Assembly: GCA_016197155.1 (NCBI GenBank)
Contig: JACPWF010000024.1
Coordinates: forward strand, 17,432-81,431
Direction of reading: 5' to 3'
DNA length: 64,000 nt
From: Candidatus Omnitrophota bacterium
GTDB lineage: Bacteria > Omnitrophota > Gorgyraeia > 2-02-FULL-51-18
The position numbers were made by a program, and so were the translations under genes. Within the stretch, counting starts at the first letter, position 1, and every line of letters starts with the position of its first letter. Positions 16,105 through 37,060 of the stretch are shown piece by piece. The notes under the pieces are model-generated. The model made no database searches. It worked only from the letters and a program-made list of their open reading frames with translations, and had not been told where the DNA came from.

Positions 16105-16108
<4 letters not shown>
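15005..16108 (+). CDS. dnaN: DNA polymerase III beta sliding clamp
   Basis: 367 aa, three-domain clamp. MKISVSKENLLRGIQAVQNAVSTKSTLPILSHILLEA. Confidence 0.95.
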
Positions 16109-18866
<2,758 letters not shown>

Positions 18867-18892
18867 GGAATTTGGATATTTAAGGAATAAAG

Positions 18893-21358
<2,466 letters not shown>

Positions 21359-21373
<15 letters not shown>

Positions 21374-21433
21374 CCTGGCTTAGGACATCACCCTTTCACG
21401 GTGATGACACGGGTTCAAATCCCGTTGGGGTCG
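21359..21433 (+). tRNA. tRNA-Glu (anticodon TTC)
   Basis: GACCCCA TC GTCTAGCCTGGCTTAGGAC A TCACC CTTTCAC GGTGA TGAC ACGGG TTCAAAT CCCGT TGGGGTC G. Nearly collinear with E. coli tRNA-Glu. Overlaps the last codons of gyrA. Confidence 0.85.
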
Positions 21434-21484
21434 TGGATTCGACGCGCCGTGAGGAAAAGTATTTCCTCACGGCTTGCTCACCAC
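21428..21484 (+). repeat. 57-bp direct repeat, copy B (left boundary of the nitrate/Moco block); begins in the tRNA-Glu 3' end
   Basis: gggtcgtggattcgacgcgccgtgaggaaaAGTAtttcctcacggcttgctcaccac. Identical to 34548-34604 except that the 4-nt hairpin loop is reverse-complemented. Confidence 0.8.
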
Positions 21485-21620
21485 GAGCCTAGTCGAATCC
21501 ATAGCCGACTTTCAACAAAATTTTAAAATGATTTTCGTTTTTAACTTCCGATTCACATCTCCGTAACATTCACCCGTATCATGACCATCCTGCGAGCAAA
21601 AAACCATAAAGGCGCGGAAG

Positions 21621-22310
21621 ATGAGGGAAAAACGGCACTTGGAAGTCTTGTACCAAATAAGCCGCGCCCTCGTGGGAAAGCAGGATTTGGACGCTATCCT
21701 TCAGCAGGTCGTCACGATGACGGCGGAGCTGGTAGGTTCTAAAATTTGTTCTTTGATTTTGTTGGACTTGGGCAGAGATGAGCTGGCCATAAAAGCAACC
21801 CAGAGTCTCAGTCTTTCCTACAAGGAAAAACCGAACATTCCGGTGAGCCGCAGTGTCAGCGGAATGGTGATCAGGAAAAAGCAGGCCATTCAAGTGGGAG
21901 ATGTCACGAAGGATCCGCTGTACGGCTATCCCGAGATCGCCAAGCAGGAAGGTTTAAAGTCGCTTTTGTGTGTGCCGCTGGTGCTCTCGGGCAAGGTGAT
22001 AGGCGTTCTGAATTGTTACACGGAAGAGGAAAAAGTTTTCACAAACGAGGAAATACAGCTTGTTCAAATGGTGGCCAATCAGGCGGCCATCGTCATTGAA
22101 CACGTCCGGGTTGTTTCCGAAGAGGCGCGGGCCAAACTCGCCCTCGAGACGAAAAAAGCCGTGGATGCCGCTAAACGCGTTTTGATGAAGAAACGCAAAA
22201 TAAGCGAAGAAGAGGCCCATCGGTTCATTCAGCGGGCCAGCATGGAGAAAAATAAGCCGCAAAAGGAAATTGCCGAAGCTGTTCTCATGGCAGTGGAACT
22301 AGAAAAGTAG
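21621..22310 (+). CDS. GAF-ANTAR RNA-binding antitermination regulator (NasT/AmiR-like)
   Basis: 229 aa. N-terminal GAF (LGRDELAIKATQSL...GVLNCYTEEE). C-terminal ANTAR with coiled-coil (ALETKKAVDAAKRVLMKKRKISEEEAHRFIQRASMEKNKPQKEIAEAV). Confidence 0.8.
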   Translation: MREKRHLEVLYQISRALVGKQDLDAILQQVVTMTAELVGSKICSLILLDLGRDELAIKATQSLSLSYKEKPNIPVSRSVSGMVIRKKQAIQVGDVTKDPLYGYPEIAKQEGLKSLLCVPLVLSGKVIGVLNCYTEEEKVFTNEEIQLVQMVANQAAIVIEHVRVVSEEARAKLALETKKAVDAAKRVLMKKRKISEEEAHRFIQRASMEKNKPQKEIAEAVLMAVELEK

Positions 22311-22327
22311 CCGAAAAAGTTTTATTT

Positions 22328-22371
22328 AAGGATAAAGACGTCCTTATTTTGGAGGGAGTCAATGGCGACTC
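22328..22371 (+). promoter_or_regulatory. candidate ANTAR dual-hairpin RNA target in the nirB leader
   Basis: AAGGAU-AAAGAC-GUCCUU and GAGUC-AAUGGC-GACUC. Two stems with hexaloops carrying A at position 1 and G at position 4, 10-nt linker. U-run at ~22388. Confidence 0.55.
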
Positions 22372-22407
22372 CGATCAAGATAAGGACTTTTTATTTCTGA
22401 GGGTTTT

Positions 22408-24855
22408 ATGAAGCCAAGGCGTCTCGTAGTGATCGGAAACGGCATGGCAGGCATGGCCTGCCTGGATGAGATTCTAAAAAGAAAGCCGAATTTTGAGATC
22501 ACGGTTTTCAGCGAGGAACCTTATTTCAACTACAATCGCATTTTATTGTCCGCCGTGTTGGCCGGTGAGAAAACGGCCGACGAGATTTACATCAACACCG
22601 AAGAGTGGTACCGCCAGAACCGGATCACGCTCCATTTGGGCGAAAAGGTTGTCGAAGTGGACTCGAAAAACAAAACCATTCTTACGGAGAAAGGCTATTC
22701 CTTCGACTACGACACCCTCCTTTTGGCCACAGGCAGTCATCCCTTTATTCCGCCCATCGAAGGCACGAGCAGAAAAGGCGTTTACGTTTTCAGAAATCTG
22801 AAGGATACGGGCCGTATTTTAGAGCACTGCAAATCCGCTCGAAAAGCGGTCGTGATCGGCGGCGGACTCTTGGGCCTTGAGGCGGCGCGTGGGCTACTCA
22901 ATCGCGGACTCGAGGTGACTGTGGTTCACCTCATGGACCGTTTGATGGATGTTCAACTCGACGCCGTTGGCGGACAATTCTTGAGACGGGAGATCGAGAA
23001 ACTTGGCATCGAGGTCCTGCTCAATAAGAATACCGAAAAACTCACGGGCGGCGAAAGTGTCGAGGGGGTGCTTTTTAAAGACGGCTCAATGATTCCCGCG
23101 GACATGGTCGTGATGGCCTGCGGGATACGGCCGAATGTCGAACTGGCCAGGCAAGCGGGTCTGAAAGTGAATCGCGGGATTGTCGTCAATGACAGGATGG
23201 GGACAAGCGATCCGAGTATCTTTGCGGTGGGCGAATGCGTGGAACATCGCGAGAAGGTTTACGGTCTTGTGGCGCCGCTCTATGACCAGGGAAAAATTTT
23301 AGCGGCCACGATGACCGGCGAAAGAGGGCCGGTTTATGAGGGATCGACATTGGCAACCAAGCTCAAAGTGATGGGCATAGAGCTTTTTTCGGCCGGTGAT
23401 TTCAAGGGGGATGAACCCGACAAAGAAGTGGTCGCCTACCAGGACCATGCGTTTGGCGTCTATAAGAAGATTGTGGTTCATCAAGAGCGCGTGGTAGGCG
23501 CGATCTTGATAGGGGACGCTTCGGACGCCAACCGTTTTCTCGAAATGATGCGAAAAAAAGAACCCGTCGGAGATAAACGGCATCATTTGCTTTTTGATGC
23601 GCCACTTGCATCGCCCGGTTCAACGACCGACGTCATGTCCCGTCCCGACGGAGACACGATTTGTGGCTGTATCGGCGTGACCAAAGGCCAGATCGTCACC
23701 GCGATCCGCGAAAACAATCTCAAGACCGTTTCGGCGGTAAAAGCTTGCACGAAAGCTTCCTCGGGATGCGGCACTTGCGCGGGACTTGTGCAGGAAATGG
23801 TAAAGGCCGTGGCCGGCTCAACATTCGAAGAAGAAAAAAAAGAAGTTTTGTGCGCGTGCGTGCCTTTTCCGAAAGAACAACTGCGGACGATGATTAAAAC
23901 TCAAAATCTTAAGTCCGTGCAGGATGTTCTCGATATCTATGGCAACGGCATGGGGTGCTACTTTTGTAAACCGGCCTTGAGCTTCATCGTGGACGAGGTG
24001 CATCTGGGTGAACATAAAGAAGACCGCTCGGCGCGATTTATCAACGACCGCGTCCATGCCAATATTCAAAAAGACGGGACGTTTTCCGTCGTGCCCAGGA
24101 TGCGCGGGGGCGTGACGAATCCCAAAGAGCTTCGTAAAATTGCGGATGTCGCGGAAAAGTACAAAGTGCCGATGGTAAAGGTTACCGGAAGCCAGCGCCT
24201 CGATCTTTTGGGGGTAAAGAAAGAAGACTTGCCGAAAATATGGGCGGAGCTTGGAATGACGTCCGGTTATGCTTACGCAAAAGCGGTGCGAATGGTGAAG
24301 TCCTGCGTCGGAACCGATTTTTGCCGTTATGGCACGCAGAATTCCATTGCGACGGGAATTAAATTAGAAGAATTGCTCGAAGGGCTTTACACCCCGGCAA
24401 AAGTCAAAATGGGCGTCGTGGGCTGTCCGCGCAATTGCGCCGAGGCGACCGTCAAAGATATCGGGCTTGTCGGCATCGAAGGCGGCTGGCAGGTGGTGAT
24501 CGGCGGCGCCGCGGGGAAGAGTGTGCGTGCGGCGGATATTCTTTGCACGGTGAAAACGACCGAGGAAGCGCTGGAAGCGGCTTTGCTTTTTTTCCAATAT
24601 TACCGGGAGAACGGAGAGTATCTGGAGCGCACTTATGATTTCGTGCCGAGAGTCGGTCTCGAAAAAATCCGCCGCGAGACGGTGCTGGCTTCCGAAGAAA
24701 AGAAAACAGCGCTTTTGGGTCATCTGGAGAAAGCGAAAGCAAAAGCGGTGAATCCGTGGGCGGTGGAATCGGAGAAACCGGCGCATCCTTATCAATTTCA
24801 GGATTTTGTTTTGCCGAAAGACACACAAGCGCTTGTGTTTCAAGAGAGCCTGTGA
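22408..24855 (+). CDS. nirB: assimilatory nitrite reductase [NAD(P)H] large subunit
   Basis: 815 aa. FAD/NAD Rossmann folds (RLVVIGNGMAG, KAVVIGGGLLGLE), BFD-like 2Fe-2S, sirohaem/4Fe-4S nitrite-sulfite reductase domain. Confidence 0.9.
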   Translation: MKPRRLVVIGNGMAGMACLDEILKRKPNFEITVFSEEPYFNYNRILLSAVLAGEKTADEIYINTEEWYRQNRITLHLGEKVVEVDSKNKTILTEKGYSFDYDTLLLATGSHPFIPPIEGTSRKGVYVFRNLKDTGRILEHCKSARKAVVIGGGLLGLEAARGLLNRGLEVTVVHLMDRLMDVQLDAVGGQFLRREIEKLGIEVLLNKNTEKLTGGESVEGVLFKDGSMIPADMVVMACGIRPNVELARQAGLKVNRGIVVNDRMGTSDPSIFAVGECVEHREKVYGLVAPLYDQGKILAATMTGERGPVYEGSTLATKLKVMGIELFSAGDFKGDEPDKEVVAYQDHAFGVYKKIVVHQERVVGAILIGDASDANRFLEMMRKKEPVGDKRHHLLFDAPLASPGSTTDVMSRPDGDTICGCIGVTKGQIVTAIRENNLKTVSAVKACTKASSGCGTCAGLVQEMVKAVAGSTFEEEKKEVLCACVPFPKEQLRTMIKTQNLKSVQDVLDIYGNGMGCYFCKPALSFIVDEVHLGEHKEDRSARFINDRVHANIQKDGTFSVVPRMRGGVTNPKELRKIADVAEKYKVPMVKVTGSQRLDLLGVKKEDLPKIWAELGMTSGYAYAKAVRMVKSCVGTDFCRYGTQNSIATGIKLEELLEGLYTPAKVKMGVVGCPRNCAEATVKDIGLVGIEGGWQVVIGGAAGKSVRAADILCTVKTTEEALEAALLFFQYYRENGEYLERTYDFVPRVGLEKIRRETVLASEEKKTALLGHLEKAKAKAVNPWAVESEKPAHPYQFQDFVLPKDTQALVFQESL

Positions 24856-25175
24856 TGACCGTCCAGTGGTTTCCGGTCGCGGAGCTCGGCGCCATCCCGA
24901 AAAATGAGGGCCGGAAAGTTTCGTTTGGCGAAATAGAAATTGCCTTGTTCAATTTGGGCGAGGAATACCGCGCTGTGGATAACCGCTGTCCACACAAGCA
25001 GGGACCATTGGCGGATGGGATCGTGTCGGGAAAGTCGGTTTTTTGCCCGTTACACAGTTTGAATGTCAGCCTGGAGAATGGCTGCGCGATTCGCGGCGCG
25101 GGATGCGTGAAGGTTTATCCGGCGAAAGTAATGGGCGCGAGGGTTTGCGTTGCTTTTTATGAAGGGAAACAATGA
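24855..25175 (+). CDS. nirD: nitrite reductase small subunit (Rieske-like)
   Basis: Conserved part starts MTVQWFPVAELGAIPKNEGRKV. CPHKQGPL...CPLH Rieske motif. ATG overlaps the nirB stop. Confidence 0.85.
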   Translation: MTVQWFPVAELGAIPKNEGRKVSFGEIEIALFNLGEEYRAVDNRCPHKQGPLADGIVSGKSVFCPLHSLNVSLENGCAIRGAGCVKVYPAKVMGARVCVAFYEGKQ

Positions 25176-25525
25176 AAGAGATCGTGGCGATTATTCGTCC
25201 TCAAAGGGATCGGGCGACAAAAGAAGAGCTTGTGAAAATCGGTTGTTTGACTTGCACGACGTTTCGTGTTTACGGGCGAGGCAAACAGCGGGGGCTCACG
25301 TATAAGTCGGCTTTGGGAAACGGCTCAGCGCCGGTCGGCATGAAGTACCTGCCGAAGAAAATGGTTTACCTCATGGTGAATGACCAGCAAGTGAAACCGA
25401 TTGTTCAGGCGATTTTACGCGCCAATCAAACCAGTCAATACGGGGACGGAAAGATCTTCGTGACCGATTCGAAGGAAGTGGTGAGAATCCGTACGGGAGA
25501 AAGAGGAGAGGTGGCGATTCGATGA
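25172..25525 (+). CDS. PII (GlnB/NifI-like) nitrogen regulatory protein
   Basis: 117 aa. MKEIVAIIRPQRDRATKEEL...GDGKIFVTDSKEVVRIRTGE. Confidence 0.8.
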   Translation: MKEIVAIIRPQRDRATKEELVKIGCLTCTTFRVYGRGKQRGLTYKSALGNGSAPVGMKYLPKKMVYLMVNDQQVKPIVQAILRANQTSQYGDGKIFVTDSKEVVRIRTGERGEVAIR

Positions 25526-25839
25526 AGATGATCAAGGCCGTGATACGGCCCGAAAGAGAATCAGAGGTTCTGAGCGGACTTGAGAAAGAAGGGTTTTATT
25601 CGCTCACAAAGTGGGACGTCTTGGGACGTGGTCGTCAAAAAGGTGTCCAGGTCGGCAAGACGACCTACGATGAACTGGCAAAACTATTGCTCATGGTCGT
25701 CGTAGAAGACGTTGACTTAAAAAGAGCCATTGAAACGATCGAGACTCATGCGCGAACCGGTAATTTCGGAGACGGAAAGATTTTTGTTTCAGACGTGAAA
25801 GAGGCGTACACCATCCGCACCGGCAAAAGCCGGTTGTGA
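25522..25839 (+). CDS. PII (GlnB/NifI-like) nitrogen regulatory protein, second paralog
   Basis: 105 aa. MKMIKAVIRPERESEVLSGLEKEGF...GDGKIFVSDVKEAYTIRTGK. Confidence 0.8.
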   Translation: MKMIKAVIRPERESEVLSGLEKEGFYSLTKWDVLGRGRQKGVQVGKTTYDELAKLLLMVVVEDVDLKRAIETIETHARTGNFGDGKIFVSDVKEAYTIRTGKSRL

Positions 25840-25868
25840 TTTTACATTCATAAGAAAGGAATTTACGA

Positions 25869-27104
25869 ATGAGGATCAAGGATTTCGTAAAAAGCGGCCA
25901 TCCCCCCACGCTTTTTTCAGCTTTTTTGTATTTTGACATCAGTTTTATGGTTTGGGTACTGATCGGCGTCCTGGGAGTTTACATCGCCAAGGATTTTGGC
26001 TTGAGCGCGACGCAAAAAGGTTTCATGGCGGCAATCCCGCTTCTGGGCGGGGCGCTCGTGCGTATTCCCCTGGGCCTTCTCGTCGATCACATCGGACCCA
26101 AAAAAACAGGGATGATCGCTCAAGCCGCCGTGATCCTGCCGCTTTTGGGAATTTGGCTTTTTTCGCCGGCGCTTGACGCCGTGCTCGCATTCGGTCTTCT
26201 TTTGGGGATCGCCGGAGGAAGCTTCGCCGTGGCACTGCCTCTGGCGAGCCGTTGGTACCCGCCGAAACACCAAGGCATGGCGCTCGGAATCGCTGGAGCG
26301 GGGAATAGCGGCACGGTTTTGGCGAGTCTTTTTGCGCCGCGTTTGGCTGAAGTCTTTGGCTGGAGAAACGTCTTTGGCCTTGCGCTTCTTCCGGTCGCGG
26401 CCGCCTTTGTCATTTATTTGGTCCTGGCCAAGGAAAGTCCGCAGCAGCCTCAGCCGAAAAGGCTCGGAGAGTATCTCTCCGTTTTTAAAGAAACCGATAC
26501 GTTCTGGTTCTGCTTTTTTTACAGCATCACTTTCGGCGGCTTCGTCGGCTTGGCCAGTTTCCTGGGAATTTTCTTTCACGATCAATACGGACTGACCAAA
26601 ATAAATGCCGGCTATCTGACGGCATGTTGCGTTGCGGCCGGGAGTTTTGTCCGGCCCGTCGGCGGGTATCTCGCCGATCGCTTTGGCGGCATCCGGATGC
26701 TTTCGGTTCTGTTTGGTTTGATTGCGTTCTTCATGATGGGAGTGGGTTCTTTGCCGACGGTTTTGACGGCAACCGTTCTTATGTTTTGCGGCATGGCGTG
26801 CTTGGGCATGGGCAATGGCGCGGTATTTCAGCTTGTGCCTTTACGATTTCAAAAGGAGATCGGGGTCATGACGGGCATCGTGGGCGCGGCGGGCGGCTTG
26901 GGCGGTTTTTTCTTCCCCACGCTTTTAGGTTATTTCAAGGATAGGGCCGGATCTTATGGCGTGGGCTTTAGGGTGTTTGCGGTGGCAAGCTTTGCGGCGC
27001 TTGTGATTTTAAGGGTTGTCCAACGCGGGTGGACTTTTTCACGGATCGTGAAAGAGATTCCGGTACTTGAGGCACACATGGTGGTTCAGTCTATCGAAGA
27101 TTAG
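25869..27104 (+). CDS. narK: MFS nitrate/nitrite transporter (NarK/NasA family)
   Basis: 411 aa, 12 TM. Nitrate-transporter signature GGALVRIPLGLLVDHIGPKK and GMACLGMGNGAVFQLVP. Confidence 0.85.
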   Translation: MRIKDFVKSGHPPTLFSAFLYFDISFMVWVLIGVLGVYIAKDFGLSATQKGFMAAIPLLGGALVRIPLGLLVDHIGPKKTGMIAQAAVILPLLGIWLFSPALDAVLAFGLLLGIAGGSFAVALPLASRWYPPKHQGMALGIAGAGNSGTVLASLFAPRLAEVFGWRNVFGLALLPVAAAFVIYLVLAKESPQQPQPKRLGEYLSVFKETDTFWFCFFYSITFGGFVGLASFLGIFFHDQYGLTKINAGYLTACCVAAGSFVRPVGGYLADRFGGIRMLSVLFGLIAFFMMGVGSLPTVLTATVLMFCGMACLGMGNGAVFQLVPLRFQKEIGVMTGIVGAAGGLGGFFFPTLLGYFKDRAGSYGVGFRVFAVASFAALVILRVVQRGWTFSRIVKEIPVLEAHMVVQSIED

Positions 27105-27108
27105 AATG

Positions 27109-29310
27109 AACTGGAAAAATTTTGTCGAGATGATGGTCGTTTACGAAGAGGGCGAAGAAACCCTCTGGGAAACGAGCTCTATTCCGGATAAGGAACTTCG
27201 CTGGGGAAAATCCGTGTGCCCTTATTGCGGCGTAGGCTGCGGGGTTCTGGTGGGGGAGAAGGAAGGCAAGATCCATAAAGTTCGCGGGAATCCGGAACAC
27301 CCCGCCAATCGGGGCCTTCTTTGCGCGAAAGGAGGCACGCTTCCCCTCATGCTGGATACGCCCGACCGTCTCAGTTTCCCCTCCCTTCGTGAAAAGGCTT
27401 CTTCGGAATTTGAGCGTGCCAACTGGGAAAAAACGCTGGGATTCATCGCCGAGAAGACCAAGGCCGTATTGAAAAACGACGGGCCCGAGGCATTTGCTTT
27501 TTATATTTCGGGCCAGCTTCTCACCGAAGATTATTACGTCGTGAATAAACTCGCGAAGGGCTTCCTTGGCACGAACAACGTGGATTCAAACTCCCGCCTT
27601 TGCATGGCCAGCGCCGTCGCCGGTTATATGACCTCACTCGGCGCGGATGGTCCGCCGACCTGTTATGACGATATTGAAGAGTCGAATTGTTTTTTCCTGA
27701 TCGGCACCAACACCGCGGCCTGCCATCCCGTCACCTTTCAGCGCATTAAAAACAGAAAGGCTTCGAACCCGAAAGAGATAAAGGTGATCGTCGCAGATCC
27801 CAGAAGAACTCGCACGGCGGAAATGGCCGATCTTCATCTTCCCTTAAAACCGGGCACGGACGTGGCGCTTTTGAACGCGATGCTTCACGTGATTGAAAAA
27901 GAAGGCTACCTGGATCAGGCATTTATCCGGAATCATACAGCGGACTGGGAAAAGTTGAAAAATATTCTTCCGCTTTATTCTCCGGAAAAAGCCGCTGAAA
28001 TTTGTGGCATCGAAGCCTCACTCATCCGGGAAGCGGCGCTTCTTTTTGCGAAGGCCTCTTCGGCCCTGAGTTTTTGGAGCATGGGCCTGAATCAAAGTTC
28101 CAGCGGCGTTGCCAAGAATAACGCGGTGATCAACCTGCATCTGGCCACGGGAAAAATAGGAAAGCCGGGGTCAGGCCCTTTTTCGCTCACCGGTCAGCCG
28201 AACGCGATGGGTGGAAGAGAAACCGGCGGCCTGGCGCATCTTTTGCCGGGGCATCGTCTCATCGGGAACGAACGACACCGCGCCGAGATGGAGCAGTTTT
28301 GGAATGTGGCTGAAGGTCGGATTTCACCCACGCCCGGCCTCACTGCGATCGAGCTCTTCCGCGCGGTCGAGGCGGGAAAAGTGAAAATCATTTGGATTGT
28401 CGCGACCAATCCCCTCGCTTCGATTCCGAATCTCAATTTTGTGAAGGCGGCCCTGGCCAAAGCGGAGCTTGTCATCTGCCAAGACGTCTATCATCCCACC
28501 GAGACAACGCACATGGCGCATGTGCTTCTCCCGGCCGCGCAATGGTCGGAGCGGGACGGCACGGTGACCAACTCCGAGCGGCGGGTCTCTTATTTGGAAA
28601 AAATCAGAGAACCGCCCGGGGAAGCAAAGCCCGACTGGCAGATTTTCTGCGAATTTGCGCGCCGAATGGGTTTCGAAAAAGAATTTTCATTTGAAAGCGC
28701 CGAAGACATCTACGAGGAATACAAAAAAACCACGCGGGGAACCGGCGTCGATATCGGCGGCGTATCGTACGCGCGGCTCAAAAAGGAATTCATTCAATGG
28801 CCTTGTCCGGATGAACATGCGGGATCCACCCCTCGGCTTTACACGGATTTTCGTTTTCCGACTTCGGATGGAAGAGCAAGGTTTCAGGCGCGCGAGTACG
28901 CGCCGCCTGCGGAGCCGACGGATGAGGCCTATCCTTTCATTCTCACCACCGGCCGCGTTCGTGACCAGTGGCACACAATGACACGCACGGGAAAAATCGA
29001 CTCGCTTCTCAAAGCCGAACCTTATGCCTTCCTCGAGCTTCATCGGGACGATGCCGAAAAGCTTGGAATTGGAGAAAACGAGATGGTGGAGGTGCACACG
29101 CGTCGCGGCTTTGCCAAGGCGCCGGCCCATCTTTCGGAAAACATTCGGCCCGGCACGTGCTTCATGCCTTTTCACTGGGGGTCGTTGTGGGGCGAGGCGG
29201 ATATAAACGCGGCGACGGTGGATGCGTTTGATCCCATTTCGAAACAGCCGGAGCTCAAATTTTGTGCGGCACGATTAACGAGGCTCGAACCGGTGAAAGC
29301 GGAAACGTAA
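27109..29310 (+). CDS. nasA: assimilatory nitrate reductase catalytic subunit (molybdopterin oxidoreductase)
   Basis: N-terminal 4Fe-4S motif CPYCGVGCG, MGD-binding domains. The ORF frame opens at 27067, but ATG 27109 follows the narK stop. Confidence 0.85.
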   Translation, partial: NWKNFVEMMVVYEEGEETLWETSSIPDKELRWGKSVCPYCGVGCGVLVGEKEGKIHKVRGNPEHPANRGLLCAKGGTLPLMLDTPDRLSFPSLREKASSEFERANWEKTLGFIAEKTKAVLKNDGPEAFAFYISGQLLTEDYYVVNKLAKGFLGTNNVDSNSRLCMASAVAGYMTSLGADGPPTCYDDIEESNCFFLIGTNTAACHPVTFQRIKNRKASNPKEIKVIVADPRRTRTAEMADLHLPLKPGTDVALLNAMLHVIEKEGYLDQAFIRNHTADWEKLKNILPLYSPEKAAEICGIEASLIREAALLFAKASSALSFWSMGLNQSSSGVAKNNAVINLHLATGKIGKPGSGPFSLTGQPNAMGGRETGGLAHLLPGHRLIGNERHRAEMEQFWNVAEGRISPTPGLTAIELFRAVEAGKVKIIWIVATNPLASIPNLNFVKAALAKAELVICQDVYHPTETTHMAHVLLPAAQWSERDGTVTNSERRVSYLEKIREPPGEAKPDWQIFCEFARRMGFEKEFSFESAEDIYEEYKKTTRGTGVDIGGVSYARLKKEFIQWPCPDEHAGSTPRLYTDFRFPTSDGRARFQAREYAPPAEPTDEAYPFILTTGRVRDQWHTMTRTGKIDSLLKAEPYAFLELHRDDAEKLGIGENEMVEVHTRRGFAKAPAHLSENIRPGTCFMPFHWGSLWGEADINAATVDAFDPISKQPELKFCAARLTRLEPVKAET

Positions 29311-30291
29311 ATGAAAGATAAATACGGGCGTGAACTGACCTATTTGCGGGTGTCGCTGATCGACCGTTGCAATCTCCGCTGTTTTTACTGCATGCCTCAT
29401 GGCCTCCTCAGTCCTTTTCGTGAGGACGAATTATTGACTAGGGATGAAACAGCCGAAATTATTTCCATTTTCGCGGAATTGGGAATATCCAAAGTGCGTC
29501 TGACGGGCGGCGAGCCGCTTTTGAAAAAAGGCGTTCCGGAGCTTATTCGCCGGATCAAAAAATTCTCCGGCATCCGCGAAGTCGTGATGACGACCAATGG
29601 CGTGCTCTTAAAGCCGTTTGCGGAAGATCTGAAAGCGGCGGGGCTGGATCGCATCAACGTGAGCCTGGACACGTTGAACAGGGAAAATTTTAAGCGCATC
29701 ACCGGCATGGATAAGTTGGAGGATGTCTTGGGCGGCATGGAAGCCGCGGCGCGGGCCGGAATCGGACCCATCAAAATCAATGCGGTTTTGATGAAAGGGT
29801 ATAACGACGAGGAAGTCATGGATCTTGTCCGATTCGCCATTGCGGGGTCTTTTCAAATTCGTTTCATCGAATGGATGCCGACGGCCGGCGCGATCCATTC
29901 GGTGAGAGAAAACCGTTTCCTGAGCTCGGAGTTCGCAAAAAAAATTGTCGAAGAAAAATACACTTTAATTCCGGATGATTCCAATCCTCATGCGCCGGCG
30001 AGAAGTTTTTATATCGAAGGCACAAAGTCAAGCGTGGGGTTCATCAGCCCGCTCTCCAACGCTTTTTGCGCGATGTGCAACCGTCTGCGCCTGAAAGCCA
30101 ACGGCATGATGAAAACCTGTTTGCACGGCAAGGAGGATCTGGACATCCAATCGCTTTTGCGAAAAGGCTGTTCGCGGGAGGAAATCAAAGAAAAGATCGT
30201 GTCGGCGGTATGGGATCGTCCCGAAGAGCATTTTCTGAATAATCAAGCCGTGCCTCATCGCGATTTTGTGATGACAGCGGTGGGAGGGTAA
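29311..30291 (+). CDS. moaA: GTP 3',8-cyclase MoaA (radical SAM)
   Basis: 326 aa. CNLRCFYCMP radical-SAM cluster motif, C-terminal auxiliary cluster CAMCNRLRL. Confidence 0.9.
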   Translation: MKDKYGRELTYLRVSLIDRCNLRCFYCMPHGLLSPFREDELLTRDETAEIISIFAELGISKVRLTGGEPLLKKGVPELIRRIKKFSGIREVVMTTNGVLLKPFAEDLKAAGLDRINVSLDTLNRENFKRITGMDKLEDVLGGMEAAARAGIGPIKINAVLMKGYNDEEVMDLVRFAIAGSFQIRFIEWMPTAGAIHSVRENRFLSSEFAKKIVEEKYTLIPDDSNPHAPARSFYIEGTKSSVGFISPLSNAFCAMCNRLRLKANGMMKTCLHGKEDLDIQSLLRKGCSREEIKEKIVSAVWDRPEEHFLNNQAVPHRDFVMTAVGG

Positions 30292-31200
30292 ATGAGATCC
30301 ATCACAAGGAAAACCGAAACCTTGCGTCAAGCCACTGCCGAGAGCCGGTTGCGGGCTAAGCCGGAAACGTTAAAGCGGCTCTTGAATAATGACGTGCCCA
30401 AGAAAGACATTTTGGCGATTGCCAGAGCGGCCGGCGTGATGGCCGCGAAAAAGACGCCGGATCTTTTGCCCTATTGCCATCCGATAGCGATTGATGGGGT
30501 GGAGCTTGAGTTTGATGTCCAAGAAACCGGCATTCTTATTCACGCGACCGTCGAGGCCGTCGCCAAAACGGGCGTTGAAATGGAAGCCTTGACCGCGGCC
30601 AGTGTGGCGGCTCTCACGATTTACGACATGCTGAAGCCCATCGACGAATCGATCGAAATCCTGAGCACAAAGCTCCTTAAAAAAACGGGTGGTAAAAGCA
30701 GTTTCAAAGAGAAAATTCCCTTGGGATTTAAGGCTGCCGTCATTGTTACCTCGGACAGCACGTCTAAAGGGATGCGTTCCGATAAATCAGGCAGACTCAT
30801 CGAAGAAAAACTTAGGTTTTTTGGAGTGGATTCAGCGTATGAAGTAATTCCGGACGACAAAGATTTAATTTCCGCCACACTTCAAAAATATTGCGAAAAC
30901 GGAACAAATCTCATCGTGACAACCGGAGGAACGGGTTTGGGACCGCGCGATGTGACCGTCGAGGCCACGGAGAAGGTGATCGATCGCGAGATTCCCGGCG
31001 TCATGGAATCGGCGCGGTGTTACGGCCAGCGGAGAACTCCGTATGCGATGCTTTCGAGGGGGCTTGCGGGGCAGAAAGGAAAAACGCTTATTGTGAATCT
31101 TCCGGGTTCTTCGAAAGGAGCGGAAGAATCACTGGATGCGCTTTTCCCGTCGCTTTTCCACGCGTATAAAATGATGCGAGGTCTCGGACATGATGCTTGA
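30292..31200 (+). CDS. moaC: MoaC-MoaB/MogA fusion (cyclic pyranopterin monophosphate synthase plus molybdopterin adenylyltransferase-like domain)
   Basis: N-terminal MoaC (HATVEAVAKTGVEMEALTAASVAALTIYDM). C-terminal MogA/MoaB (IVTTGGTGLGPRDVT). Confidence 0.85.
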   Translation: MRSITRKTETLRQATAESRLRAKPETLKRLLNNDVPKKDILAIARAAGVMAAKKTPDLLPYCHPIAIDGVELEFDVQETGILIHATVEAVAKTGVEMEALTAASVAALTIYDMLKPIDESIEILSTKLLKKTGGKSSFKEKIPLGFKAAVIVTSDSTSKGMRSDKSGRLIEEKLRFFGVDSAYEVIPDDKDLISATLQKYCENGTNLIVTTGGTGLGPRDVTVEATEKVIDREIPGVMESARCYGQRRTPYAMLSRGLAGQKGKTLIVNLPGSSKGAEESLDALFPSLFHAYKMMRGLGHDA

Positions 31201-31945
31201 TTTGCCGTTTTGGCTACCGCTGGCTTTTTTCTTTGTCGCGATGATTTATTCCATGGTCGGTTTTGCCGGCGGTTCCTCTTACCTGGCCCTTCTCGTTTTG
31301 GCGGGACTTCCTTATAAACAGGTGCCGCCCGTGGCGCTTCTTTGCAACCTCATTGTTTCCGCTTCGGCGTTTTGGCATTTTTATAAAGGCGGACATTTTG
31401 ATTTAAAGAAAGCGCTACCTTTTATTGTGTTTTCGATTCCGCTGGCCTTTTTGGGTGGGAAAATGGCGATAAGCAAGGAACTTTTTCATCTCTTCCTTGG
31501 TTTCTCCCTGTTTGTGGCAGGGGCAAGGATGCTCCTGCCGGATAAAAATTTTATGGAAACGCGCCCTGTTTCCTCAAAGAAAATGTGGCTTGTCGGAATG
31601 CCTCTCGGTGCGGCCCTGGGTTTTCTCTCGGGGCTCGTGGGGATCGGAGGGGGTATTTTTTTAAGTCCTTTCCTACTTTTGATGAGATGGATGGATGCCA
31701 AACAAACGGCCGCGGCCGCGAGTTTTTTTATTTTGGTGAATTCTCTTTCCGGCCTTTTGGGTCAAATGCATAAAGGAGCGGCGGCGCCGGGCGAACCCTT
31801 CCTATTTCTTGGCCTCGCGGTGCTCCTGGGCGGTCAATTCGGCGCGAGGATTGGCGCCTACCGTTTACCCCGTCCGGGGGTGCAAAGAATCACGGGACTT
31901 CTCATTTTGTACGTTTCATTCAGTCTCTTGGGCAAGGTTTTTTAA
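31190..31945 (+). CDS. TauE/SafE family sulfite/anion exporter-like permease
   Basis: 251 aa, ~8 TM. Repeated GxGGG motifs (GFAGGSSYLALLV, GIGGGIFLSPFLLL). Confidence 0.7.
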   Translation: MMLDLPFWLPLAFFFVAMIYSMVGFAGGSSYLALLVLAGLPYKQVPPVALLCNLIVSASAFWHFYKGGHFDLKKALPFIVFSIPLAFLGGKMAISKELFHLFLGFSLFVAGARMLLPDKNFMETRPVSSKKMWLVGMPLGAALGFLSGLVGIGGGIFLSPFLLLMRWMDAKQTAAAASFFILVNSLSGLLGQMHKGAAAPGEPFLFLGLAVLLGGQFGARIGAYRLPRPGVQRITGLLILYVSFSLLGKVF

Positions 31946-31946
31946 A

Positions 31947-33173
31947 ATGATCTCTTGCGAACAAGCTCTGAAACTCATCGAAGAAAATAATCCCTCTCCA
32001 AAAGAGGAGGAGGCATGGATTTCCGCGGCGCTGGGTCTTGTGTGCGCCGAAGACGTGAGAGCCCCCTTGGACCTGCCTTTGTACGACAATTCGGCAATGG
32101 ACGGATTCGTGTTGCGATCCGAAGATACCCGGACGGCGACAGCCGAAAAACCGGTTTTGTTGAGCATTCGAGGCGTTGTCAAAGCAGGGGATGATGGAAG
32201 GGTTCGTCTGGATGAGGGGAAAACTTACCGGATCATGACAGGCGCTCCGATCATTAAAGGAGGCGATGCGGTTCTCGAAAAAGAAAAGGCGTTTATTCAG
32301 GACAATTGTCTGGTGATGACTGCGCCGGCCCAAAAGGGAAGGAACATCCGATACCAGGCCGAAGAAGTAAAAAAATCCGAGTTGGCATTGCCCAAAGGCT
32401 CAGTGATCACTCCCGGCACCATCGGTTTTCTGGCGACGATGGGAATGAATAGAGTCACGGTTTATAAAAAACCCGCCATCTCTTTAATCACCACGGGCAG
32501 TGAGCTCACGGCTCCCGGCGGTTTATTGAGACCCGGAAAGATTTATGATTCGAACACCGCCATGATCCAGGCGGCCCTCGAGGAAATGAGAATTCGTCCT
32601 TTCTTTGTCCGGCGCTTTCATGATGTGCCGAAAACCATTCAAAAAGTGATGCGTTTTGCGTTGAAAGAAAGCGACATCGTGATTCTCATGGGGGGAGTCT
32701 CGGTCGGGGATTACGATTTTGTCAAAGGGTTGCTTGAAGAAGAAGGCGTGAAAACCATTTTCTGGAAGGTCAGTCAAAAGCCGGGGAAACCTTTGTATTT
32801 TGGCCGGAAAGAAAATCGTCTCGTTTTCGGTTTTCCGGGCAACCCTGCGAGCGTTTTCACCTGTTTCTACGAGTATGTTTACCCGGCGATCCGGCGCTTC
32901 ATGGGGTATCAAAATCCTTGTCTTTTTTCATCAAGGCTTAAACTCAAAGGATCTCTTAAGCCGGACCCTGAAAAAGTTTTATTCATTAAAAGTAAAATCG
33001 AAAACGGAGAAGACAAAGGAGTGCTCCCGCTGAGGCACCAGAAATCCCACATGATCTCTTCTTTATGCCAAGCGGACAGTTTCGTGGTGGTGCAGAATTC
33101 CGAAACCGTTCTTGAGGAAGGCGAAAAAGTTCTTGTCCACGCCCTTCCTTTTGCTTCGGAGGGCGTTTTGTGA
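31947..33173 (+). CDS. moeA: molybdopterin molybdenumtransferase MoeA
   Basis: Conserved start MISCEQALKLIEEN. ATG 31947 follows the tauE stop; the ORF frame opens at 31809. MoeA domains (LPLYDNSAMDGF, ILMGGVSVGDYD). Confidence 0.85.
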   Translation: MISCEQALKLIEENNPSPKEEEAWISAALGLVCAEDVRAPLDLPLYDNSAMDGFVLRSEDTRTATAEKPVLLSIRGVVKAGDDGRVRLDEGKTYRIMTGAPIIKGGDAVLEKEKAFIQDNCLVMTAPAQKGRNIRYQAEEVKKSELALPKGSVITPGTIGFLATMGMNRVTVYKKPAISLITTGSELTAPGGLLRPGKIYDSNTAMIQAALEEMRIRPFFVRRFHDVPKTIQKVMRFALKESDIVILMGGVSVGDYDFVKGLLEEEGVKTIFWKVSQKPGKPLYFGRKENRLVFGFPGNPASVFTCFYEYVYPAIRRFMGYQNPCLFSSRLKLKGSLKPDPEKVLFIKSKIENGEDKGVLPLRHQKSHMISSLCQADSFVVVQNSETVLEEGEKVLVHALPFASEGVL

Positions 33174-33222
33174 CCCTTCGACAAGCTCAGGGTCATGGTG
33201 AGCGAGCGAAACGAGCCGAACC

Positions 33223-33465
33223 ATGAAAATAAAAATCCTTTTTTTTGCCGAGCTTAGGGAAATTTTTGGGGGATCTCGATTTATCGACGTGAGAGAAGAC
33301 TTAACAGTCGGAGAAGTCGTGGACCTCTTGGAGGATGAACTCAACCAGTCTTATTCCAAAAGAGATTCTCTAATCTACGCGGTCAACGAAAATTTTGAAA
33401 CAACAGATAAAAAGCTAAAAAACCTCGATGAATTGGCGCTCATGACGCCCATGTCAGGGGGCTGA
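33223..33465 (+). CDS. moaD: molybdopterin synthase sulfur carrier subunit MoaD
   Basis: 80 aa. Ubiquitin-like, ends ...LALMTPMSGG (Gly-Gly C-terminus). Confidence 0.85.
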   Translation: MKIKILFFAELREIFGGSRFIDVREDLTVGEVVDLLEDELNQSYSKRDSLIYAVNENFETTDKKLKNLDELALMTPMSGG

Positions 33466-33891
33466 TTGTATCTCACGGCTGAGACGATAAATCTCCAAAG
33501 GTTCTTTTCCGAAGAGGCCCCGCCATCCTGCGGCGCGGCGGTCTCTTTTGCCGGAATGGTTAGAAACCATGATCATGGCCGTGCCGTCAAGAGTCTTTAC
33601 TACGACTGTTACCGCTCGATGGCGGAAAAAATGATAAAGGCTCTCATTGAAGAGGCTGAAATCCGATGGCAGATTGGAAAGGTGCGGGTGTTGCACCGCA
33701 TCGGCCATCTCGAAATCGGAGAGGTCGCTGTCGCCATCTCGGTGAGTTCCGCTCATCGTGCGGAGGCGTTTGAGGCCTGTCGATTTATGATTGAAGGAAT
33801 CAAAAAGAATGTTCCGATTTGGAAAAAAGAGATCTTTGAAGATGGGATGAGCGAGTGGGTGTCGTGCAAACACGCGGAGGCGGCCTCTTGA
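33466..33891 (+). CDS. moaE: molybdopterin synthase catalytic subunit MoaE
   Basis: 141 aa, TTG start. VRNHDHGRAV...VLHRIGHLEIGEVAVAISVSSAHRAEAFEACRFMIEGIKKNVPIWKKE. Confidence 0.85.
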   Translation: MYLTAETINLQRFFSEEAPPSCGAAVSFAGMVRNHDHGRAVKSLYYDCYRSMAEKMIKALIEEAEIRWQIGKVRVLHRIGHLEIGEVAVAISVSSAHRAEAFEACRFMIEGIKKNVPIWKKEIFEDGMSEWVSCKHAEAAS

Positions 33892-34463
33892 TCCGTGGGC
33901 TTGTGTTGGCAGGGGGGAAGAGTTCGCGTTTTGGCTCAAACAAGGCCGTCGCGAGTTATCAAGGCGTTCGTCTGATCGAGCGTGCCGTTTCGCTTTTGAA
34001 TGAATTAGATCTCAAGCCAATTGTGGCGGTTCGGAAAGACATGGATTATCCATTTTTGAAATGTGTAGCGATCCATGACAAATTACCGGATCAGGGTCCT
34101 TTGGGCGGTATTTATACGGCGATGACTATGTTTAAGAAAACACCCTTTTTAGTATTGACCTGCGACATGCCCCGACTGACACCGTCGGCCTTAGCAGAGC
34201 TTTTAGCCCGGCACGAAACACATTCTCTCATCACCGCTTATTCAACCCGAGACGAGACGCCTCAACCTTTTCCGGCAGTTTATGAACCCGTGCTTCTGGG
34301 CGCTGTCCGCGAGAAGTTAAAATGTGGTAACCTATCCATGCATGACTTGTTCGATCGAACTCCCACCAAAAAACTTATTCCATGGAAAGGAGAAAGCAAT
34401 ATTTTTATCAATATTAATTCCACACAAGCCCTAAAAATCTTGGAAACTCTATCCTCTGATTAG
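33855..34463 (+). CDS. mobA: molybdenum cofactor guanylyltransferase MobA
   Basis: LVLAGGKSSRFGSNKA nucleotide-binding motif. True start is probably near 33885 (TTG/ATC region overlapping the moaE stop). Confidence 0.75.
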   Translation: MGVVQTRGGGLLIRGLVLAGGKSSRFGSNKAVASYQGVRLIERAVSLLNELDLKPIVAVRKDMDYPFLKCVAIHDKLPDQGPLGGIYTAMTMFKKTPFLVLTCDMPRLTPSALAELLARHETHSLITAYSTRDETPQPFPAVYEPVLLGAVREKLKCGNLSMHDLFDRTPTKKLIPWKGESNIFININSTQALKILETLSSD

Positions 34464-34547
34464 GATTTGAGGTTTCTCCTTCGTAAATTTTCCTTTTAAA
34501 ACGGCAGTATAGCCGCTATTCCGAAGGTTCTTTGTTTTATGCAAATA

Positions 34548-34604
34548 GGGTCGTGGATTCGACGCGCCGTGAGGAAATACTTTTCCTCACGGCTTGCTCA
34601 CCAC
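34548..34604 (+). repeat. 57-bp direct repeat, copy C (right boundary of the nitrate/Moco block)
   Basis: gggtcgtggattcgacgcgccgtgaggaaaTACTtttcctcacggcttgctcaccac. Preceded only by the last 6 nt of the tRNA-Glu sequence. Confidence 0.8.
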
Positions 34605-34625
34605 TAAGTGGCCCGCTCATCAGAG

Positions 34626-35168
34626 TCAGGGAGCCTTCTTTGAGACGTCTTTGGAAAGAAAAGCGCCAGCTTCCTTTGCGGACAAGGAATGGTTTTTTAC
34701 CGAATGTTCGGCGACCTGCACCGAGAGAGGCAGATCGGTCTTTTGTAAACGGACGATCTGATAGGGAGACGTAAATTCCTGCGTCGCAAGGCCGCCCCCT
34801 CCATTGGTTTCGAGAAAAACATAAAGCCAGCCAGCCCCTTCCTCGATTTTTTTCACTTGAATGGTATAACCCCCCGTCGATTGGACTCCCATAAGGCAAG
34901 CGATGACCATTTCTTTTTCGAAATCAATTTTTGGCAACGAGGGAGCCGGTTCGGGGAAAGTCTCAATTTTAATCCTTGACCAAAATTTTTCCCATGCGGC
35001 ATTCGCGCGAATCACAACCACCGTTTCCTTTCCCTCATAACCGCAGTTGTCACCCGAAATAACTTCTTGGTACGCGATGCCCCCGTATAAATCCGAGGCA
35101 AATACCGTGTTTTTCATCAATCCAAATAAAATAAAAAGAAATATGGGAAGAGCCGATTTTTTGTTCAT
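34626..35168 (-). CDS. secreted protein with PrcB_C-like domain
   Basis: Signal peptide MNKKSALPIFLFILFGLM. IACLMGVQSTGGYTIQVKKIEEG resembles the PrcB C-terminal domain. The ORF frame extends to 35228. Confidence 0.45.
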   Translation of the reverse strand: MNKKSALPIFLFILFGLMKNTVFASDLYGGIAYQEVISGDNCGYEGKETVVVIRANAAWEKFWSRIKIETFPEPAPSLPKIDFEKEMVIACLMGVQSTGGYTIQVKKIEEGAGWLYVFLETNGGGGLATQEFTSPYQIVRLQKTDLPLSVQVAEHSVKNHSLSAKEAGAFLSKDVSKKAP

Positions 35169-37060
35169 GAGCTGTCTGCTCTCCTGATGGGGAATCTCAA
35201 GATCTCTTCGTGTTTCAAATAAGAGCATGTGACCAAAAGCACCCAGCCCTCGTTTTCTCTGACGCCGGAGGCGGAGGGAAACGTCACCGATCCGCCTTCT
35301 CCGAAATGATAATGAGGCGGCTCCCCGTCTTTGAGAGGCTCAACCCATTCGCCTTTAGGGCTTAGCAATGTAACGGCTCTAATAAGTCCTTGTCCGTTTT
35401 TGCCTAGAATTTCCTTGGTGCTATTGGCCAGCATGCCGGCTCCAAAAAAAACGCCGCGCATGTCCCAATTCACCGAAGGATTGAGCCTGACCTCAAAGCC
35501 GCTTGGCGTGCTTTTATATTCCGGTTTCAGTCGAAGCCACCCGACAACAAAGTCTCCAAAATTATCCCCGTTCTTTCGGTCATGATGGTAAAAAAAGAAT
35601 TGTTTCGATAAAGCCGGACGTTCTTCGTTTCTGGTGTCCACGGACGCGATCAGCGCCGCACGCGCGGCCAAAAGCATAAGCCAGGGGGATTCGGAATTCA
35701 AACCCTTTTCTACCAAAGCTTGCGCGCGCTTTTGATCCGCGGCAAACGGCGCTTGAGCGGCCTTGGCCAGCGCTTCGTTATACAAAATGAGCGACCACGC
35801 ATTTTGATCGGGATCTTGCAGAAGAGAATTCCAGGTCTTTTCAAAGTGATCCATGAGAAGGCCTATTTTGAGCCTCGCCAACACAAGCGAGAACTGGGGC
35901 CGGAGAGAACGGTCCTCATTTTGATCCAAAAGCTGATAAAGTCCGATGATGGGCCTCAGTTGGCCCGCGTCCCAAAGCGCCAGGGCGGAAAAAGCCAGCG
36001 ACCGAGAGGTGTGTTGGGTTGTGGGCTGATTGTTGATGTTTTCAATGGCAGGAATGGCCCCTTCCGCCATCAGGTAACCAATGATCTTCGTGCGAGGGGA
36101 TTCATAGCCGGTTTTTACCGATTGATACAGATCGGCTAAATTTAAAACGGCGCCGGCCAAAATTTCCACGCTACGCTGATAAGCGCCCGAATCTTTCCCG
36201 GCGCTTGACCGTTCCAAAATATAATACATTTGAAGAACCGGCCATGCTTTTTCGGGGTTTAACGGAAAAAGCACCTGCAAAGCTCTCATTCGTACCTCCG
36301 GCGACCTATCCGCCAGCCCTTTTTCTATCAGTGGCATGGCCTCGCTTTCAAAAGACGCAGGAATTTTCCACAAAAGTTCCATGGCTTTTGCGCGAACCCA
36401 CCATTTTTCATGAGTGATGGCTTCACCTGCGAGGGCAATGCGTTCGGCCGGGTCGATTCGCCCGGTTTCTTGTGCCCAAACCAAGGCGGCGGCCAACCGC
36501 ACATCGAAGGATTGACGGCCCAATGCTTCGCGAAACGCGGCATAATTTTCCATGCCCATGAGACGATAAAGTCCCCGGAAAATTTCTATCCGGGTAAAAA
36601 GATTTAATGAGTCCCTATGGAGTAAATTTTTTAAGGTGTCTATGTCCGACTCGGTGGCCGTATCCACGAAAGTGCGCATCGTCGAATAAAAAACCGCGTA
36701 GTTTCTTTTGACCGGCGCGGTGGGTTCAAAAAGAGCCTCGACGGCCAGGCGGATCTTGGCCAGGCATTCTTTGACCGCCGGGTCATTTCTGTCGAGACGG
36801 CTTGAATCCAAGAGGCCGCAAACGCTCGAGGGGGTGAGTGTGTTGGTCCATGCGTAAGCATCCCCGTCAATAAGCTCCGCGGGAATGTCGGCAAGACCCC
36901 AAAAAAAAGGTTGCCACCGGTCGCGGGGCTTTAATCGAAGCGTGACGCCCTGGGTTTCTCCGGGAAAGACAAAGGCCTCGGTGGAATAAATCACGGGGGT
37001 TTCGGCTTGCAAAGGCGAAAGAATAAAAAACGAGATCAAGGTCAAAAAAACCGCTCTCAC
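35165..37060 (-). CDS. secreted HEAT/armadillo-repeat protein of unknown function
   Basis: 631 aa. Signal peptide MRAVFLTLISFFILSPLQA. Repeated alpha-helical HEAT-like units (EVRMRALQVLFPLNPEKAW). Confidence 0.45.
   Translation of the reverse strand: MRAVFLTLISFFILSPLQAETPVIYSTEAFVFPGETQGVTLRLKPRDRWQPFFWGLADIPAELIDGDAYAWTNTLTPSSVCGLLDSSRLDRNDPAVKECLAKIRLAVEALFEPTAPVKRNYAVFYSTMRTFVDTATESDIDTLKNLLHRDSLNLFTRIEIFRGLYRLMGMENYAAFREALGRQSFDVRLAAALVWAQETGRIDPAERIALAGEAITHEKWWVRAKAMELLWKIPASFESEAMPLIEKGLADRSPEVRMRALQVLFPLNPEKAWPVLQMYYILERSSAGKDSGAYQRSVEILAGAVLNLADLYQSVKTGYESPRTKIIGYLMAEGAIPAIENINNQPTTQHTSRSLAFSALALWDAGQLRPIIGLYQLLDQNEDRSLRPQFSLVLARLKIGLLMDHFEKTWNSLLQDPDQNAWSLILYNEALAKAAQAPFAADQKRAQALVEKGLNSESPWLMLLAARAALIASVDTRNEERPALSKQFFFYHHDRKNGDNFGDFVVGWLRLKPEYKSTPSGFEVRLNPSVNWDMRGVFFGAGMLANSTKEILGKNGQGLIRAVTLLSPKGEWVEPLKDGEPPHYHFGEGGSVTFPSASGVRENEGWVLLVTCSYLKHEEILRFPIRRADSS

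Follow-up and report, generated by a model that had tools for sequence, protein, structure and literature searches.

A nitrate assimilation and molybdenum cofactor gene block between two copies of a putative tRNA-Glu trailer element in Candidatus Omnitrophota

The nitrate block and its bracketing repeats

We analyzed a 64-kb stretch of DNA (the window) from a metagenome-assembled genome (MAG) of Candidatus Omnitrophota, which covers the replication origin region and in which a 13-kb block of genes for nitrate assimilation and molybdenum cofactor (Moco) biosynthesis lies between two copies of a 57-nt direct repeat, the first of which starts inside a tRNA-Glu gene. The organism was placed in this phylum via the relatives of its GyrA, the nearest of which, among 5.8 billion proteins searched, was 88 to 89% identical. 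tRNAs were called with ARAGORN and Rfam, genes were assigned with NCBIfam and Pfam, and 91 related loci, labelled L001 etc., were fetched for comparison. The left part of the window carries pheS, infC, thrS, coaBC, ndk, parB, parA, mnmG, yidC, dnaA, dnaN, gyrB and gyrA, and the right part carries sulfate assimilation and housekeeping genes (Table 1).

The block consists of 14 co-oriented, tightly packed genes. Its regulator, with an ANTAR RNA-binding output domain, lies directly upstream of nirBD-narK-nasA, as in the NasR/NasT-type systems, which are ANTAR-regulated assimilatory nitrate/nitrite operons. Whereas the sensor in those systems is a NIT or receiver domain, the regulator found here has a GAF sensor domain, and two P-II paralogues and a full Moco pathway are present within the same cluster. 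An earlier analysis of the bare DNA (the sequence-only reading) had listed the regulator, nirBD, two P-II proteins, NarK, NasA and a complete moaA/moaCB/moeA/moaD/moaE/mobA set. All of the named genes were confirmed, but the 14th gene, encoding a TauE/SafE-family membrane protein, had been missed, and "complete" was slightly generous, since neither moeB nor a molybdate transporter was seen in the block. In all examined copies of the block, moaC/B and moeA flank the TauE/SafE-family gene, and a role of its product in anion export or molybdate handling is possible. The segment of ~45 nt that precedes the regulator (TTTTTAACTTCCGATTCACATCTCCGTAACATTCACCCGTAT; general form TTTTTAAC-TTCCGRTT-...-CGTAACATTCACC) is also found at L026 1240-1285 and at L079 about 1270-1310. 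It holds a TTAAC/GTTAA-like dyad and is probably the promoter/operator of the nitrate cluster.

The tRNA-Glu gene behind gyrA was confirmed by ARAGORN and Rfam alike, in line with the sequence-only reading. The gyrA frame enters it by 15 nt and ends with a TAG stop codon (21371-21373) inside the tRNA; the same overlap exists in an 88%-identical relative (L082 12458-12472). The repeat begins 6 nt before the end of the tRNA gene, and the first gene of the block begins 187 nt past it. These 6 nt, GGGTCG, are the only tRNA part of the repeat, the other 51 nt being trailer. The two copies, with a start-to-start spacing of 13,120 nt, are identical at 53 of 57 positions, and all four differences make up the loop of a hairpin, which reads AGTA in copy 1 and its exact reverse complement, TACT, in copy 2. 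The perfect stem of this hairpin measured 12 bp (GCCGTGAGGAAA/TTTCCTCACGGC) and not 11 bp, as had been described, and the whole 28-nt palindrome is exactly reverse-complemented between the copies (an inverted pair, 100% complementary). There was no third copy in the window, even when three mismatches were allowed; shuffled sequences gave no match either (0/100).

The direct repeat with its reverse-complemented loop, as first read from the sequence, was reproduced by a second assembly, the Logan contigs (k=31) of run SRR12113391, possibly the same data that the MAG was built from. These contigs cover window positions 21358-26794 and 33065-37884 and match them base for base, including the loop orientation of each copy. 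Owing to the loop flip, the two copies have no 31-mer in common and therefore cannot be collapsed or misjoined at k=31. Since both junctions are matched, the repeats and the flip are not an assembly artefact. The window does come from a MAG, but a chimeric assembly or binning join at a short repeat is ruled out by contigs that span both junctions identically, and the probability left to it is negligible.

The flip cuts the longest unbroken direct identity from 57 to 30 nt, the remaining runs being 30 and 23 nt, and yields a perfect 28-bp inverted repeat between the copies. Identities of this length are close to the minimum for RecA-dependent recombination. The flip should further lower RecA-mediated loss of the block, which would stabilize it, and is best explained as one template-switch event. 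A single template-switch mutation can invert a hairpin loop (Monttinen & Loytynoja, PNAS 2022, PMC8794818), and small hairpin-associated inversions are common in plastomes (e.g., PMC6824564). As in both of these cases, the loop is reverse-complemented between perfect arms and its length is kept; whereas those inversions distinguish orthologues of different species, the flip described here separates two paralogous copies in one bacterial genome.

Table 1. Features of the window around the nitrate block (positions are those of the 64-kb window)
Feature	Positions	Strand	Basis or remarks
Conserved backbone: mnmG/gidA, yidC, dnaA, dnaN, DciA-like orf99, gyrB, gyrA	9083-21373		Pfam/NCBIfam and collinearity
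tRNA-Glu(UUC)	21359-21433	+	ARAGORN; Rfam, 60 bits; conserved synteny ends here
Direct repeat copy 1	21428-21484	+	Last 6 nt of tRNA-Glu and 51 nt of trailer; loop AGTA
Complete putative trailer element E	21434-21500	+	Fold; homology and covariation with L001
Upstream segment	21536-21581	+	Kept before the regulator in three genomes; left edge of conserved block
GAF-ANTAR regulator	21621-22310	+
nirB	22408-24855	+
nirD	about 24855-25175	+
Two P-II-family proteins	25172-25839	+
narK-type nitrate/nitrite transporter	25869-27104	+
Assimilatory nitrate reductase nasA	about 27133-29310	+
moaA, moaC/moaB fusion, TauE/SafE, moeA, moaD, moaE, mobA	29311-34463	+
TauE/SafE-family membrane protein	31190-31945	+	14th block gene
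84-nt spacer, mobA stop to repeat copy 2	34464-34547	+	No similarity found elsewhere
Direct repeat copy 2	34548-34604	+	GGGTCG and first 51 nt of E; loop TACT; hairpin 34566-34593
PrcB_C-domain protein, HEAT-repeat protein (631 aa), orf411, orf155	34626-38756	-	Four-gene operon, right flank
5'-Truncated small GIY-YIG remnant	38805-38950	+	C-terminal ~48 codons; just upstream of crcB

The tRNA-Glu trailer and the hotspot behind it

Copy 1 is part of a larger structure, element E, for which a composite hairpin of 67 nt was predicted (-40.1 kcal/mol; z = -7.4). The 12-bp hairpin (21446-21473) and another, small one lie within an outer stem of 10 bp (TGGATTCGAC/GTCGAATCCA). In copy 2 the partner strand of the outer stem is missing, and E is cut off at the junction with the prcB operon. 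A homologue of E was found in L001, the closest relative. There, on the tRNA strand, the full tRNA-Glu gene is followed by 165 nt, an 18-nt direct copy of its 3' end and then TGGATTCGAC, after which come a perfect 12-bp hairpin of wholly different sequence, TCGCTCACCAC, and then GAGCCTAG...GTCGAACCATG; the ATG in the GTCGAACCATG segment starts a small GIY-YIG gene. The L001 element folds to the same three-way architecture (-69.5 kcal/mol; z = -7.6), and the main hairpin of E covaries completely between the window and L001. The pattern GGATTCGAC-N20-50-CTCACCA was found at E sites alone in the window and the 91 loci. Since E stands behind a tRNA-Glu fragment in L001 and copy 2 has kept nucleotides of the tRNA, the repeat appears to be the native trailer of tRNA-Glu that moves with the tRNA 3' end, and not a dispersed element of the repetitive extragenic palindrome (REP) or miniature inverted-repeat transposable element (MITE) kind.

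Other identities of E were considered and rejected. A canonical Rho-independent terminator is ruled out because a U-tract is missing on either strand (CTTGCTCACC follows the stem on the plus strand and GCGTCGAATC on the minus strand), and E was absent from the terminator scan; relatives carry a hairpin with a T-run, i.e., canonical terminators, after tRNA-Glu. The 5' part of the element (GGGG...TGGATTCGAC) is like the 5' end of a transfer-messenger RNA (tmRNA), but ARAGORN called no tmRNA, Rfam stayed below threshold (tmRNA_permuted, 13 bits versus a gathering score of 47; only the tRNA passed) and a complementary 3' acceptor strand was not present. An integron attC or dif/Xer site was set aside from general knowledge, without a dedicated test, on the grounds that there is no IntI, that the cargo is a multigene operon with its own promoter region, that the site is close to the origin and not to the terminus and that the arms are of the 12-4-12 form. 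Four viral matches to the 17-mer GGGGTCGTGGATTCGAC were judged to be due to chance; one lies in the T-arm of a tRNA-Ala and the others in unrelated sequence.

The ~11.5 kb from mnmG to tRNA-Glu are collinear with the window in about eleven Omnitrophota relatives. Downstream of tRNA-Glu, nothing was common to the window and the relatives, and little was common among the relatives themselves. At this locus L001 carries a PIN toxin, BpuSI/Eco57I-type restriction-modification genes, a C5 methylase, a pair of M78 peptidase and helix-turn-helix genes and a small GIY-YIG gene, L004 carries PIN, VRR-NUC and SbtA, and other relatives carry KdpD, a PLD-family protein, DUF4325, MarR and others. Moreover, 8 of the 16 contigs stop within 870 nt past gyrA/tRNA-Glu, versus 2.4 expected under uniform placement (P about 5e-6), and L001, L010 and L016 have partial copies of the tRNA-Glu 3' end close to the gene. 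The stop of synteny, the varied cargo, the contig breaks and the partial tRNA ends together establish the site after tRNA-Glu as a genuine tRNA-seeded hypervariable hotspot. No integrase was found in the open reading frames scanned at the post-tRNA-Glu loci of the relatives.

Further rearrangements were seen around tRNA genes. In L001 (18250-18636, minus strand) tRNA-Glu lies 9.5 kb from gyrA and is inverted with respect to it; beside the tRNA are, in addition to the 18-nt direct copy, a 17-nt inverted copy of the 3' end of another allele (GCTGGGG, not GTTGGGG) and the E-like element that runs into GIY-YIG, an arrangement that suggests repeated integration or inversion events at tRNA-Glu. L010 (11534-11700) has an inverted 18-nt copy of the tRNA 3' end past the terminator of tRNA-Glu, followed by GC-rich structured sequence, and in L016 an 82-nt palindrome takes in the tRNA 3' end. 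The window itself contains an interrupted partial tRNA-Val copy (4330-4506, minus strand) ~100 nt downstream of the intact tRNA-Val (4507-4580). It is made up of a 27-nt exact copy of the anticodon arm (4380-4406 = 4529-4555), a 36-nt GC-rich hairpin insert and the tRNA 3' end (GAGTCCTGTATTGCCCA), and looks like another scar of a tRNA-end duplication in the same genome. In some relatives (L001, 1458-5222 and about 5300-9098; P0158 and P0167) gyrA contains intein and LAGLIDADG domains (PF14890, PF14528; 1,280-aa GyrA), and gyrB of L001 is split as well, by an insert of about 1.3 kb; gyrA and gyrB of the window are uninterrupted.

The four-gene operon to the right of copy 2 has a low GC content at third codon positions (GC3; 0.49 to 0.56) and almost no homologues. 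For the HEAT-repeat protein a single homologue (62%), encoded on a 2.4-kb contig, was found among the 5.8 billion proteins, and an exact-protein look-up of the prcB-like gene gave no match. Because of the low GC3 and the near absence of homologues, this right flank is itself accessory DNA. Beyond it lies the remnant of a small GIY-YIG gene. The intact gene stands directly after E in L001, and the remnant in the window has the orientation expected from that order. Small GIY-YIG genes occur near the edges of variable regions or of the nitrate block in three genomes (the window, L077 9752-9952 and L001 17988-18263).

The block in other Omnitrophota and the origin of the repeats

The nearest organism-named homologues of NasA were all from Omnitrophota, with graded identities of 81, 76, 72 and 70%, and therefore any transfer was within the phylum. 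The same order of 14 genes was found at three unrelated loci in other Omnitrophota. In L026, L072 and L073 (NasA 81%) the block lies between pyrH-frr-tRNA-Lys and a methyltransferase-serS region, directly 3' of tRNA-Lys; in L079 to L081 (NasA 69%) it lies between a giant protein and SNF2-dnaX; and in L076 and L077 (NasA 72%), where its left end is cut, it is followed by a desaturase, GIY-YIG and purU. Rearranged versions were present in L028, L075 and L078. No flanking gene was common to the window and any of the block-bearing genomes. Homology of the block starts at the upstream segment and ends at the mobA stop codon; with L026 and L072 it spans window positions 21614-34476 plus an upstream motif at 21562-21579. 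The two repeat copies thus fall in the two intergenic spaces that this comparison sets as the edges of the block. The GC content of the block is 0.48 to 0.54 across genomes, that of the host flanks 0.42 to 0.60. Given its unit-like order at unrelated loci and its steady GC content versus variable flanks, the block behaves as a unit that is relocated or exchanged within the phylum and that in two cases directly adjoins a tRNA gene on its 3' side. In L079, a hairpin-rich repeat of ~90 nt occurs twice within the nitrate block (2036-2123 and 13182-13280, 85 to 89% identical), in the spacers between the regulator and nirB and between moeA and moaD; dispersed intergenic hairpin repeats thus do exist in some Omnitrophota.

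We consider it moderately probable that the 57-nt repeat is the mark of a single-crossover (Campbell-type) insertion at the tRNA-seeded hotspot, now a fixed, degenerate relic that was later truncated on its right side. The ancestor would have had the order gyrA-tRNA-Glu-E-GIY-YIG-crcB. A circular DNA with an Omnitrophota nitrate/Moco cluster and its own site (6 nt plus E) would have recombined at the chromosomal site, and a single crossover within the 6 nt plus E would have given tRNA-Glu-E-block-(6 nt)E-GIY-YIG, with the site duplicated on either side. The 4.2-kb prcB/HEAT segment would then have taken the place of the right-hand portion of the second E and of the first (5') half of GIY-YIG, which would have trimmed the repeat to 57 nt, and one hairpin loop would have been inverted by a single template-switch or cruciform event. 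The crossover may have been made by a site-specific recombinase, lost or acting in trans, or by homologous recombination; we infer the circular intermediate, the order of events and the type of enzyme from the present arrangement. The unit, without a recombinase of its own, now probably acts as a fixed, stable chromosomal operon, which the unbranched Logan contigs fit.

Several observations weigh against an insertion of this kind. None of the 14 block genes, all of which have metabolic or regulatory assignments, encodes an integrase or recombinase, as the sequence-only reading had noted for integrases, and no recombinase or transposase was found among the open reading frames scanned across the rest of the window. 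Bracketing repeats were looked for around other copies of the block (L026/L072, L079), and none were found. The duplication takes in only 6 nt of the tRNA, less than is usual for tRNA attachment (att) sites, and homology to E is known from one other genome (L001). Furthermore, the native trailer in L001 has homology to the 18 nt that adjoin copy 1 on its right, and a simple attL/attR model therefore needs an incoming full E or a longer repeat that was truncated later. A strain-level relative was not found, the best GyrA match being the 88 to 89% given above, and neither was an empty site; in relatives, at no more than 89% GyrA identity, the site holds other cargo or the contig stops at the tRNA. 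The Logan contigs (k=31) pass through both repeats unbranched, with no circular-junction or empty-site branch, which is a weak negative. The GC content of the block (0.516) is overall equal to that of the neighboring backbone (0.526 on the left; 0.56 further right), and its tetranucleotide distance, although high within the range, is not an outlier. Of the compositional skew that had been proposed as a check for an island, little was seen: GC3 was 0.59 in the block versus 0.69 outside, and the distance in relative synonymous codon usage was the largest of any equal-sized gene run, narrowly. Composition hence weakly supports a foreign origin and fits a donor within the phylum.

The repeat could also have arisen in situ. 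A tandem duplication that started with the last 6 nt of tRNA-Glu and extended 84 nt beyond mobA, and of which the second copy was almost all deleted or replaced by the prcB segment, would leave only GGGTCG and E(1-51), and in that case the repeat would hold no information on the arrival of the block. Such a duplication gives the exact joint of the 84-nt spacer and GGGTCG-E without a circular donor that bears E, needs no recombinase, none being present, and agrees with copy 1 being the complete native element and copy 2 the truncated one. Nevertheless, it requires that 13 kb were duplicated and then deleted nearly completely, with an end inside E, there is no other trace of a second block copy, and the different loci of the block elsewhere and the hotspot would be left unexplained; we regard it as doubtful. 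It is unlikely, too, that the copies belong to a dispersed, structured element of intergenic regions, either REP/MITE-like or a module for termination or insulation, and stand at the operon ends by chance. A strong hairpin between transcription units would be in keeping with such an element, as would the 90-nt hairpin repeat that L079 has twice in its own block, and the copy count for this genome is that of the 64-kb window alone. However, apart from the two copies in the window, the search for the hairpin or the 57-mer yielded only the tRNA-Glu-linked homologue in L001 among the 91 loci and nothing in the JGI metagenome contigs or in the viral contigs of IMG/VR, so that the genome-wide dispersal considered in the sequence-only reading was not observed in the 64 kb and the related loci. 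Moreover, 6 nt of the tRNA 3' end are kept in copy 2 and 18 nt in the L001 element, the copies show no duplicated target site, the 10-bp outer inverted repeat is present in copy 1 only and neither strand has a U-tract after the stem.

An active, nonautonomous element, moved in trans by a recombinase encoded elsewhere or on a helper with the trailer hairpin as its att site, seems quite unlikely. The repeat is perfect outside the loop, suggesting recent formation or homogenization, the same block stands beside tRNA-Lys in another genome, tRNA-Glu ends have been duplicated repeatedly at the hotspot and the 12-4-12 palindrome resembles the core site of a recombinase. On the other hand, the k=31 contigs are unbranched over both junctions in the one sample from which this genome is known, copy 2 is cut short and has no outer stem, there is no recombinase within 64 kb, and the flipped loop puts the palindrome cores in inverted orientation, which favors inversion over excision. 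The idea that the unit can be excised by recombination between the repeats thus found no sign of present-day excision in its favor. A long shot is that the three-way junction of E is a hairpin-type attachment site for a recombinase or structure-specific nuclease acting in trans, with GIY-YIG as one candidate; integrase-less cassettes would then be shuttled at tRNA trailers of Omnitrophota, and the loop flip would be a by-product of recombination at the palindrome. The relic of a Campbell-type insertion is the reading we prefer, and the other suggestion of the sequence-only reading, a degenerate island, is a fair description in view of the hotspot, the occurrence of the unit elsewhere, the missing integrase and the absence of the block from this locus: no relative carries it at this tRNA-Glu.

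Relation to known islands

tRNA gene-linked islands and integrative elements are reportedly marked by att sites that duplicate the tRNA 3' end, as Williams is said to have set out in 2002. Like them, the block lies directly 3' of a tRNA, stands between direct copies of a segment into which the tRNA 3' end extends and is missing from the site in relatives, and partial tRNA copies lie nearby in related genomes. Unlike them, it has no integrase, its duplication comprises 6 nt of tRNA plus 51 nt of a lineage-specific structured trailer, its right copy is truncated, and neither an empty site nor an excised form was observed. Therefore, the classical definition of an island applies only in part. The duplication had been taken as the classical footprint of an island; it does include the end of tRNA-Glu, but 51 of its 57 nt are trailer, and the description was to that extent overstated.

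The closest analogue is found in Prochlorococcus, in which tycheposons carry a nitrate assimilation cluster as a plug-in cassette and degenerate beside the tRNA, leaving partial tRNAs (Hackl et al., bioRxiv 10.1101/2020.12.28.424599). As in those tycheposons and additive islands, a complete nitrate cassette occupies the end of a variable island nearest the tRNA; degenerate elements and partial tRNAs lie beside the tRNA, and heterogeneity is greatest next to it, although the partial tRNA is only 6 nt here. Tycheposons have a deep-branching tRNA-specific tyrosine recombinase and a replication/packaging module, whereas neither was found in the block or the window; the phylum is a different one, the att-like repeat is mostly trailer, and mobility of the block is putative. 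Because the defining recombinase is absent, the block is not a member of the tycheposon family. It is a degenerate, integrase-less metabolic island at a tRNA hotspot, of a known kind and hardly described in this phylum, and the locus reveals no new mechanism.

No member of the Omnitrophota is in culture, and many are reportedly ultra-small or dependent on a host (PMC10066038). The locus described here indicates that a complete nitrate-to-ammonium pathway moves between sites within the phylum as one unit of 13 kb, regulator and cofactor biosynthesis included, and that defense and nutrient cargo gathers in a tRNA-seeded hotspot behind gyrA-tRNA-Glu, next to the replication origin. The hotspot explains the frequent contig breaks after gyrA in these genomes. 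The model of tycheposons and islands of Prochlorococcus is extended to a very different lineage, which helps to read patchy calls of nitrogen metabolism in MAGs.

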